Source: Escherichia coli (lineage in GTDB: Bacteria > Pseudomonadota > Gammaproteobacteria > Enterobacterales > Enterobacteriaceae). Taken from it: a DNA stretch of 64,000 nucleotides. Of this stretch, positions 23,334-24,013 are shown in pieces. The stretch is taken from assembly GCF_003334305.1 (NCBI RefSeq), contig NZ_QOWS01000026.1. The stretch is one strand, 5' to 3'. The notes under the pieces are model-generated. The model ran no database searches, had not been told where the DNA came from, and worked only from the letters and a program-made list of their open reading frames with translations. The number at the start of each line of letters is the position of its first letter. Positions within the stretch are counted from its first letter, which is position 1. Both the position numbers and the translations under genes were made by a program.

Positions 23334-23552
23334 TTACCATTCCTCGCGCAGCTTACGCTGATATTCGACACCATCTTCCTCACACCCTTGCCAGATGCCA
23401 GGAACACTGGTTCTTGCTGTTTGCGATTGATTTATCAGGTATTGATCTACCGCTTCCCTTAATAGGTCCGCACGAGGAAGATTACGCTGCACCTCGAGAT
23501 CATCAAGTTGCTTAATCACCTCATTCGATAAATCGAGTAAAATTCTGCCCAT
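23334..23552 (-). CDS. yiiF: CopG/ribbon-helix-helix family small protein (YiiF/YiiE paralog pair, member nearest fdhE)
   Basis: 72 aa from internal Met ([29 protein letters not shown]); ORF track extends to 23576. Symbol assigned from gene order relative to fdhE; which paralog is yiiE and which yiiF is uncertain. Confidence 0.7.
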
Positions 23553-23660
23553 ATCTATACCTGCCAGAGAGTTCATAAATATCTCGCCAATATCATTTTT
23601 GAATCTATGGAGAGAAAAGTACCCTTGCCGAATCTTTAAAGAAAGCTCATTTACGCATCA

Positions 23661-23679
23661 TTTTTTATTTTTGCGAGGC
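23661..23679 (-). promoter_or_regulatory. Recurrent 19-bp motif copy A (sigma-54-like -24/-12 geometry on minus strand), upstream of yiiF
   Basis: Plus strand TTGCGAGGCGTTTTCCAGA; minus strand TCTGGAAAACGCCTCGCAA with GG and GC spaced as in TGGCAC-N5-TTGCA. Confidence 0.35.
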
Positions 23680-23778
23680 GTTTTCCAGATACGATGTAAC
23701 AGTTGCAGTTATTATAAGTTCAAGTAAAACAGCCTTGTATTAATACCAGAATAAGGGCATCTGTTTTTTTATATTCAA

Positions 23779-23800
23779 GAATGAAAAATTTTTTTCATTC
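23779..23800. other. AT-rich perfect palindrome overlapping the stop codon of yiiE
   Basis: GAATGAAAAA tt TTTTTCATTC (10-bp arms). Confidence 0.5.
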
Positions 23801-24013
23801 CTTATGCTCCTTACACTGATCATCAACACCAACTGTCTCACCCCTTTGCCTGCCTCTCTTTGCTTTACGCACCGGAAATTGCTGCCGCTCCAGATATTGC
23901 TCAACCGCTTCGCGTAAAATTGCAGATCGTGAAACCTTACGCCAGCCCCGAAGCTTGTTCAGCCGTTTAATTGCCTCTTCTGATAAATGAAGAAAAACCG
24001 TATTCATCGCCAT
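23795..24013 (-). CDS. yiiE: CopG/ribbon-helix-helix family small protein (paralog of the preceding gene)
   Basis: 72 aa MAMNTVFLHLSEEAIKRLNKLRGWRKVSRSAILREAVEQYL; start supported by AAGGTGG Shine-Dalgarno 6 nt upstream; ORF track extends to 24040. Confidence 0.7.
   Translation of the reverse strand: MAMNTVFLHLSEEAIKRLNKLRGWRKVSRSAILREAVEQYLERQQFPVRKAKRGRQRGETVGVDDQCKEHKE

Follow-up and report, generated by a model that had tools for sequence, protein, structure and literature searches.

Why does the Escherichia coli chromosome carry, back to back, two small genes for ribbon-helix-helix (RHH) proteins, yiiE and yiiF, with no intact toxin gene beside them? The question is considered here for a 64,000-nucleotide stretch of E. 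coli chromosomal DNA (contig NZ_QOWS01000026.1 of assembly GCF_003334305.1), hereafter the window. In it, the plus-strand genes fdoGHI-fdhE are followed by yiiF, yiiE, nadS, and a gene for a 103-aa RelE-like protein, all on the minus strand; beyond the RelE-like gene lie a plus-strand alpha/beta-hydrolase gene and then fabY (yiiD) and dtd. The G+C content is 0.32–0.43 over 23500–24400 as compared with 0.53–0.59 in the flanks.

The answer favored here, with a probability of roughly 0.8, is that the locus represents a decaying chromosomal type II VapBC (RHH antitoxin/PIN RNase) islet between fabY (yiiD) and fdhE, in which yiiF is the orphaned antitoxin gene and yiiE a toxin-less duplicate. An earlier note on this DNA suggested, among other things, that the two proteins were orphan antitoxins or remnants of degraded modules. 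The latter suggestion was correct for yiiF, as indicated by its ortholog, synteny, a vapC pseudogene, and intact alleles segregating in E. coli, although the vapC remnant and the insertion of a repetitive extragenic palindromic (REP) element in it had been missed. The former suits YiiF, a VapB whose toxin gene decayed in place, but does not apply in the same sense to YiiE, a VapB-derived paralog whose toxin-binding motif is gone.

The Tandem RHH Genes

The gene yiiF (23334–23576, minus strand; assigned by its RefSeq name, PDB matches, and synteny) encodes 80 aa from the first ATG, the RefSeq start, or 72 aa from an internal ATG at 23552. The Escherichia-specific tandem paralog yiiE (23795–24013, minus strand; assigned by its RefSeq name, the Pfam family RHH_1, and 40% identity to YiiF) encodes 72 aa and is followed by its own stop codon, a spacer of ~220 bp, and then yiiF. 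The description of the pair as tandem paralogs with REAVDQYL and REAVEQYL cores was borne out: the proteins align at 40% identity (E 3e-12), and the profile classification called for in the earlier note places both in RHH_1, YiiE at 1.6e-11 over model positions 2–39 of 39 and YiiF weakly, at 0.007.

The period of the duplication is 439–458 bp; the duplicated unit takes in ~100 nt of upstream DNA at 71% identity (23614–23713 vs. 24053–24152), and the 3′ coding ends of the two genes are 75% identical over 55 nt. The AT-rich region with a recurrent motif reported in front of each gene was recovered as well, in the form of a shared 22-mer within the stretch of low G+C content.

YiiF and the VapBC Locus

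Residues 10–80 of YiiF are identical to PDB entry 2K5J, the nuclear magnetic resonance (NMR) structure of YiiF. The same search of PDB sequences matched the protein to VapB of Klebsiella pneumoniae (7BY2_A, i.e., chain A of 7BY2/7BY3) at E 1e-26, with the alignment reaching the last residue and covering the 21-residue C-terminal toxin-binding region. On the K. pneumoniae chromosome, the gene for a protein 100% identical to 7BY2_A stands as vapB in the order fabY, hydrolase (esterase), vapB, vapC, fdhE. The VapBC study of K. pneumoniae (Kang et al. 2020, J Med Chem) is listed as reference 49 in PMC11117207.

In Citrobacter and Pseudocitrobacter, a YiiF ortholog with 72–76% identity overlaps a 124-aa PIN gene beside fdhE, and the PIN protein next to the Citrobacter ortholog matches 7BY2_B, “Ribonuclease VapC”, at 5e-65. 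Salmonella enterica subsp. diarizonae (locus L022) possesses a YiiF ortholog (71% identity) with the upstream region of vapC-type loci. Closer to the window, Escherichia sp. E4694 harbors a yiiF ortholog overlapping the PIN gene vapC in the fdhE slot, and in E. coli 2016C-3878 the neighboring gene is annotated in RefSeq as a “type II toxin-antitoxin system VapC family toxin”. In the intact vapBC loci, vapC starts on the yiiF stop codon (TAATG). Hence, because of the 2K5J and 7BY2_A matches and the conserved vapBC synteny at the fdhE slot, YiiF is identified, at the level of sequence, as a VapB antitoxin and the positional ortholog of K. pneumoniae VapB.

These comparisons were drawn from contigs encoding the orthologs and from an E. 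coli genome collection, a single-protein pattern scan of genome contigs having given 14 close loci. Within this scope, the co-occurrence check across Enterobacteriaceae that had been proposed earlier showed yiiF orthologs beside vapC in other genera and yiiE confined to Escherichia/Shigella. The window itself contains no intact PIN toxin gene overlapping yiiF, the downstream gene being a pseudogene. None of YiiE, YiiF, VapC, and the RelE-like protein matched a PADLOC defense model, and neither YiiE nor YiiF gave a match above the NCBIfam cut-off. A YiiF variant (P0004, 96% identical) bears the UniRef name “Thymol sensitivity protein”, and no paper behind this name was found in literature searches.

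Decay of vapC

The vapC pseudogene, a PIN toxin remnant, occupies 23041–23334 on the minus strand and was delineated by tblastn and by DNA alignment to intact vapBC loci. Searched with the VapC proteins of Citrobacter and Pseudocitrobacter, tblastn returned HDLEWVTRNTRD--GVVTPYEL* at 23044–23103 of the minus strand (E 3e-6). When aligned at the nucleotide level with the intact allele of E. coli (L027), the window has vapC nt 1–10 at 23334–23325, where the ATG overlaps the yiiF stop codon. An insert of ~150 bp containing a REP element then interrupts the gene at ~23162–23313; codons 9–30 are found at 23161 to ~23104, the next ~70 codons are deleted, and the last ~24 codons (~101–124) and the stop lie at 23103–23041 with a further deletion of 15 nt. 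An intact PIN toxin open reading frame (ORF) is not present, as ~46 of the 124 vapC codons survive, in pieces with the REP insert between them. The earlier statement that no toxin-like ORF adjoins the pair holds, therefore, for intact ORFs but fails for the remnant, which follows directly after yiiF.

The canonical REP element of the insert (23250–23283, minus strand) is a 34-mer with five copies in the window and 0 expected by chance; a second, inverted REP-like unit is situated at 23186–23214 on the plus strand. A query containing the REP 34-mer gave a median of 37 matches per E. coli genome. Two copies of the vapC segment TGATACCAAT border the insert.

The lesions differ in their distribution. 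Escherichia fergusonii displays a REP insert and a deletion junction identical to those of the window and retains the 15 nt, and sequence type 131 (ST131) of E. coli displays the deletion junction and the 15-nt deletion without the REP insert. Since the junction is common to the window, E. fergusonii, and ST131, while the later lesions vary, the internal vapC deletion probably came first; that the later lesions are distributed in a mixed fashion suggests that lineages have recombined. In strain 98203 (L033:1500-1730), a single deletion begins inside the 22-mer of yiiF and ends at the 3′ end of vapC (junction CCTCGC|GAAATACGAGAG), so that yiiF and most of vapC were lost together. This deletion class probably accounts for many of the ~680 E. 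coli genomes without a yiiF match.

Two further observations concern the same region. In protein P0240 (101 aa), a VapB-like sequence continues in frame into the last ~20 residues of VapC (…KLREEWYERVTRNTKDFARIPGVMTPYYL), and this fusion ORF looks like the product of another internal vapC deletion. A 34-nt direct repeat with 74% identity connects 23020–23053, in the fdhE/vapC terminator region, with 24501–24534, downstream of nadS; it could be a chance match or another small remnant.

Origin and Conservation of YiiE

The best PDB matches of YiiE are VapB (7BY2_A) and YiiF (2K5J). Word-indexed and exhaustive protein searches detected its homologs only in Escherichia and Shigella; phmmer over 1.84 billion representatives returned 20 matches, all of them YiiE variants or other RHH proteins, and of its weak distant matches 2/3 were of the VapB type. 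There is no yiiE in the Citrobacter, Klebsiella, and Pseudocitrobacter loci. The order yiiE-yiiF-vapC occurs in cryptic Escherichia and in vapC-positive E. coli (L023, L027), and since yiiE coexists with yiiF-vapC in these loci, the duplication that produced it is older than the vapC loss.

The C-terminal toxin-binding motif is missing from YiiE. The part of the protein homologous to that tail of YiiF has the sequence RGRQRGETVGVDDQCKEHKE; it no longer contains the conserved Trp, Tyr, and Trp and forms a basic, variable tail. Between the paralogs, the ratio of non-synonymous to synonymous substitution rates (dN/dS; all values derive from 70–80 codons and six sequences) is ~1.2–1.45 in the tail for ancestral-like pairs, with synonymous sites saturated. 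Residues 1–48 of YiiE are almost invariant across Escherichia species, only the tail varying, and dN/dS of yiiE is 0.04–0.27 in most pairs and up to 0.7 with the divergent E. fergusonii allele L025. Overall, these alignments show YiiE to be a VapB-derived paralog that lost the toxin-binding motif at a time when vapC still existed.

No toxin gene adjoins yiiE; only a chimera in Escherichia albertii endowed with the C-terminus of YiiF abuts vapC. This 72-aa protein (L030:3501-4093) combines the YiiE RHH domain with the YiiF C-terminus, is directly followed by an intact vapC, and is joined exactly at the REAV(E/D)QYL core. Chimeric proteins comprise P0221, P0222, P0207–P0210, and P0193; similar ones are present in the E. 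coli data along with the reciprocal form (YiiF N-terminus and YiiE tail). The chimeras are products of unequal crossing-over between the tandem paralogs, and their arrangement suggests that the yiiE promoter and RHH domain would be able to run a toxin-containing operon.

In the RHH repressors CopG, Arc, and MetJ, alternate residues of the beta-strand face the DNA. By analogy, the predicted DNA-facing residues are R-L-D in YiiF and T-F-H in YiiE, and because of this difference the two proteins probably read different operators.

State of yiiF in the E. coli Population

Among 5426 complete E. coli genomes, with presence defined as coverage of at least 80%, yiiE was found in 5388 (99.3%), yiiF in 4735 (87%), and an intact vapC in 57. 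The gene yiiF is deleted in 681 genomes and absent from ~13% of E. coli. Exactly 57 genomes, a number equal to the vapC count, carry a yiiF 80–90% identical to that of the window, and in the vapC-positive allele L027 yiiF is ~88% identical to it (29 of 243 positions differ); the genomes with the divergent yiiF are probably those with vapC.

The substitutions in YiiF cluster in the N-terminal extension and the linker, and dN/dS of yiiF is 0.2–0.5 as compared with 0.02–0.04 for fdhE. The C-terminal 21 residues are unchanged in three loci without vapC (the window, BLK16, and E. fergusonii), and the ST131 allele differs at two of them. The segment GATATACTGGAGGTATATATG, which contains the Shine–Dalgarno motif as well as an inverted repeat of 6 bp, has been conserved by all vapC-positive loci from Klebsiella to E. 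coli, whereas the window (GATATTGGCGAGATATTTATG) and E. fergusonii, both lacking vapC, carry degraded versions of it. Taken together, the degraded Shine–Dalgarno region and the absence of yiiF from 13% of genomes point to relaxed selection on yiiF expression, with the ORF left intact.

The yiiE-yiiF spacer also serves as an insertion site. In ST131 (L032:455-2068), it harbors two genes on the opposite strand, encoding a DUF6708 protein of 282 aa and a hypothetical protein of 246 aa; in one E. fergusonii strain (L025:3018-3755), a 245-aa gene is located at the same spot.

The Upstream Element

The 22-mer TTTTTGCGAGGYGTTTTCCAGA occurs upstream of yiiF at 23668–23689 (minus strand; the coding strand reads TCTGGAAAACGCCTCGCAAAAA), where it is conserved across genera, and upstream of yiiE at 24107–24128 (minus strand). 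A third copy with three mismatches is located at 25340–25361 (minus strand), ~120 nt upstream of the RelE-like gene and adjacent to the hydrolase gene, as is the vapB promoter in Citrobacter. Such a 22-mer match arose in 0 of 100 shuffles. The TGGAAA and CTCGCA blocks are invariant from Klebsiella to Escherichia; the intervening 4 nt and the flanks vary. As the RelE-like copy sits at the position of the Citrobacter vapB promoter, the three copies are explained by local duplication of one promoter region. The 22-mer is a predicted promoter or operator, presumably a promoter-proximal element inherited from a vapB-type promoter. It was rejected as a genome-wide regulon signal, since each E. coli genome possesses 2–4 copies, all of them at the yiiE/yiiF locus.

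The possibility of a sigma-54 (−24/−12) promoter was considered as well. The spacing GG-N10-GC is present in CTGGAAAACGCCTCGCA, with GG at 3–4 and GC at 15–16 in the register of the 17-mers from chromatin immunoprecipitation sequencing (ChIP-seq). Yet with a position weight matrix (PWM) built from 50 published ChIP-seq sites, the 22-mer scored 1.7–5.3 bits vs. a median of 14.9 for true sites and ranked 198–352 in the window. The genes yiiE, yiiF, and yiiD are not named in the main-text tables of the papers on K-12 sigma-54 ChIP-seq and genomic SELEX (systematic evolution of ligands by exponential enrichment). On both counts, the sigma-54 assignment was rejected. A consensus scan for sigma-70 gave no −35/−10 pair at the motif or anywhere upstream of yiiE/yiiF, and inspection by eye revealed no −35/−10 hexamers conserved across genera. 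Elsewhere in the window, the sigma-54 PWM located strong plus-strand sites at 21596, 46725, and 48290: the 17-mer of CTGGCGCGAATTCTGCA, inside fdoI, is the same as the published site IS47, that of TTGGCACAGATTTCGCT is the same as the published glnA site, and CTGGCGTAATTGTTGCA is the strong site at 48290.

The Palindrome at the yiiE Stop Codon

The perfect 10+10 AT palindrome described earlier (GAATGAAAAA-tt-TTTTTCATTC, 23779–23800) does overlap the end of the upstream gene, the yiiE TGA lying inside it. In composition-matched block shuffles, such a palindrome appeared in that kilobase in 3 of 200 cases. The perfect form was seen in the window allele only: the BL21-derived BLK16 (L002) and strain 98203 differ from it by one mismatch (GAATGACAAAAATTTTTCATTC), with greater divergence in other Escherichia. 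This allele specificity weakens the idea of a regulatory site. The corresponding RNA would fold into an 11-bp hairpin of A-U pairs except for two G-C (−11.1 kcal/mol for a 61-nt segment, z = −3.2). An intrinsic terminator was rejected because the palindrome is followed by no U tract on either strand and the stem is not G+C-rich; nor was it reported by the terminator scan. An ArgR-type (ARG) box was rejected by eye on account of the wrong spacing. The palindrome is treated here as a weakly conserved hairpin proximal to the stop codon.

The Neighboring RelE-like/NadS Operon

The two-gene module upstream of yiiE spans 24618–25220 on the minus strand and comprises the gene for the 103-aa RelE-like protein (24909–25220) and nadS, encoding a NadS/Xre-type helix-turn-helix (HTH) protein (24618–24908). 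NadS exceeds the NCBIfam cut-off of 60 narrowly, at 60.7 bits, and the Pfam RelE match is weak (0.0062). The RelE-like/HTH pair has been catalogued as relE-1/yiaG-1 (TA27), between yiiD and fdhE (PMC7232551). It is a separate toxin–antitoxin-like pair and not a partner of yiiE or yiiF.

A LexA-type SOS box, CTGTATGAATGTACAG (CTGT-N8-ACAG), is located at 25417–25432, 17 nt upstream of the alpha/beta-hydrolase start at 25449, in the divergent region common to the hydrolase gene and the RelE-like operon. The window contains no other match, and one arose in 3 of 100 shuffles; Citrobacter, Salmonella diarizonae, and Pseudocitrobacter have near-identical boxes at the equivalent position. The promoter of the hydrolase or that of the divergent toxin–antitoxin-like pair may be SOS-regulated.

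Proposed History of the Locus and Alternative Explanations

The history that unites these findings begins in the Escherichia lineage with a tandem duplication of vapB and ~200 bp of its promoter region, giving rise to yiiE. The latter then lost its C-terminal toxin-binding motif, the RHH domain being kept invariant. Later, vapC was destroyed by the internal deletion of ~70 codons, the REP-containing insertion near its 5′ end, and the 15-nt deletion. YiiF would, thus, have been left without a toxin to neutralize and become dispensable, and YiiE would have been kept as a stand-alone regulator. From what is known of the family, both proteins would still function as RHH dimers, contacting the major groove through an inserted two-stranded beta-sheet and repressing transcription from their own promoters; the 22-mer would have been inherited from the vapB-type promoter and copied three times by local duplications.

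Several points weigh against this reconstruction. The toxin-binding tail of YiiF is conserved without vapC, and a functionless tail is not expected to stay conserved, so another partner may exist. For an RHH operator, the asymmetry of the 22-mer is unusual. The Pfam match of YiiF (0.007) is weak on its own, the VapB assignment resting on the PDB matches and synteny, and the dN/dS ratios come from short genes and few sequences.

The same conserved tail, the nearly universal presence of yiiE, and the invariance of its RHH core across Escherichia species also speak for the view that both proteins are transcription factors domesticated by the host, with targets on the chromosome other than their own promoters, and that their toxin–antitoxin ancestry is only history. 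This explanation is unlikely given that the 22-mer is found at this locus only, that yiiF is missing from 13% of genomes, that the AT-rich, H-NS-bound character of the region suggests silencing under laboratory conditions, and that literature searches brought up no paper on targets of YiiE or YiiF. A comparably tentative variant assigns YiiE the role of a genus-specific, near-core transcription factor domesticated from a VapB paralog, or else that of the third, regulatory part of an ancestral yiiE-yiiF-vapC module; it would act through the TGGAAA-N4-CTCGCA element or through a distinct operator read by T-F-H, and the tail of the orphan YiiF could still have a partner, be it an incoming VapC or another protein. 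Little credence is given to the opposite idea that both genes are functionless relics drifting toward loss. The destroyed vapC, the degraded Shine–Dalgarno region of yiiF, its deletion in 681 genomes, and the insertion of genes into the yiiE-yiiF spacer of ST131 and E. fergusonii are in line with it, but both ORFs are intact in most genomes, yiiE is mostly constrained (dN/dS 0.04–0.27) with its RHH core invariant, and the upstream 100 nt remain 71% conserved between the paralogs although their synonymous sites are saturated.

To a similarly low degree, it is conceivable that YiiF persists as an “anti-addiction” (immunity) antitoxin against VapC toxins brought in by mobile elements or by strains whose vapBC is intact. 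Intact alleles are indeed found in 1% of E. coli as well as in sister species, and the toxin-binding C-terminus is retained in the lineages without vapC. Still, no close VapC/VapB homolog was found on enterobacterial plasmids (two near “plasmid” matches carry dtd-fabY-fdhE-fdoI and are, hence, chromosomal DNA filed as plasmids), and the degraded Shine–Dalgarno sequence argues against strong expression. It is very doubtful that YiiE and/or YiiF regulate the RelE-like/NadS operon, the HigB-like operon of the earlier note. Apart from the shared duplicated promoter element, represented by the third 22-mer copy ~120 nt upstream of the RelE-like gene, nothing supports this proposal: BLK16 (L002) keeps yiiE and yiiF without the operon, the latter encodes its own HTH partner, NadS, and the motif copy at the Citrobacter vapB promoter position is explained by descent. 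The decaying VapBC islet remains the preferred interpretation.

Published Observations and Implications

E. coli K-12 is usually regarded as devoid of vapBC. The common E. coli allele, present also in the BL21-derived BLK16 (L002), comprises a vapB gene and a readable vapC pseudogene. Expression of yiiE was found to increase 2.5-fold upon SlyA overexpression, and the gene was flagged among the H-NS-bound genes of H-NS ChIP data sets (PMC5797941); genomic SELEX with RpoS gave a weak peak in the interval from yiiD to yiiE (PMC5493296), and YiiF has been counted among the uncharacterized transcription factors (PMC9308461, PMC4797297). In the literature searched, neither a functional study of either protein nor a description of yiiF as an orphan vapB was found.

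The decay of toxin–antitoxin modules is itself an ordinary, known phenomenon; the novelty consists in yiiE/yiiF as a well-resolved example of it, and two long-standing “y-genes” of E. coli gain a concrete origin and a testable function. A single species displays several states of the module, including intact vapBC (1%), the internal toxin deletion, the REP insertion, the joint deletion, and paralog chimeras. This series can be used to study how chromosomal toxin–antitoxin modules die and how an antitoxin paralog is retained without a toxin. In terms of annotation, vapC at 23041–23334 should be entered as a pseudogene.

Comparison with Known Systems

The closest known system is VapBC of K. pneumoniae (7BY2/7BY3), which occupies the same fabY-esterase-vapB-vapC-fdhE slot as YiiF. 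The RHH N-terminus and the W...EEDG.EYQR.LR.EW C-terminus are common to both antitoxins; YiiF aligns over its full length, and tblastn to the VapB of L028 gave 65% identity. In the window, however, the PIN toxin gene is a pseudogene and there is, hence, no toxin–antitoxin pair; moreover, the window has the extra upstream paralog yiiE, which is present in neither Klebsiella nor Citrobacter. With the repressors of the CopG/Arc/MetJ superfamily, YiiE and YiiF share the small size and the RHH_1 fold, documented for YiiF by the NMR structure 2K5J, but their lineage is that of toxin–antitoxin antitoxins rather than of plasmid copy-number control or metabolite-responsive repression.

The omega-epsilon-zeta modules consist of three genes, for an upstream RHH repressor, an antitoxin, and a toxin. 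The order yiiE (RHH)-yiiF (antitoxin)-vapC (toxin) of cryptic Escherichia and vapC-positive E. coli resembles this arrangement, with the difference that YiiF has an RHH domain of its own and yiiE a separate copy of the promoter, which leaves no obvious need for an additional repressor. Finally, orphan antitoxins and decayed chromosomal toxin–antitoxin modules offer the parallel of an antitoxin gene outliving its toxin, as in the case of yiiF, here by several independent decay routes within E. coli (internal deletion, REP insertion, and loss of both genes in one deletion). What sets this locus apart is a toxin remnant that can still be read, together with intact alleles segregating within the species, making a stepwise reconstruction of the decay possible.

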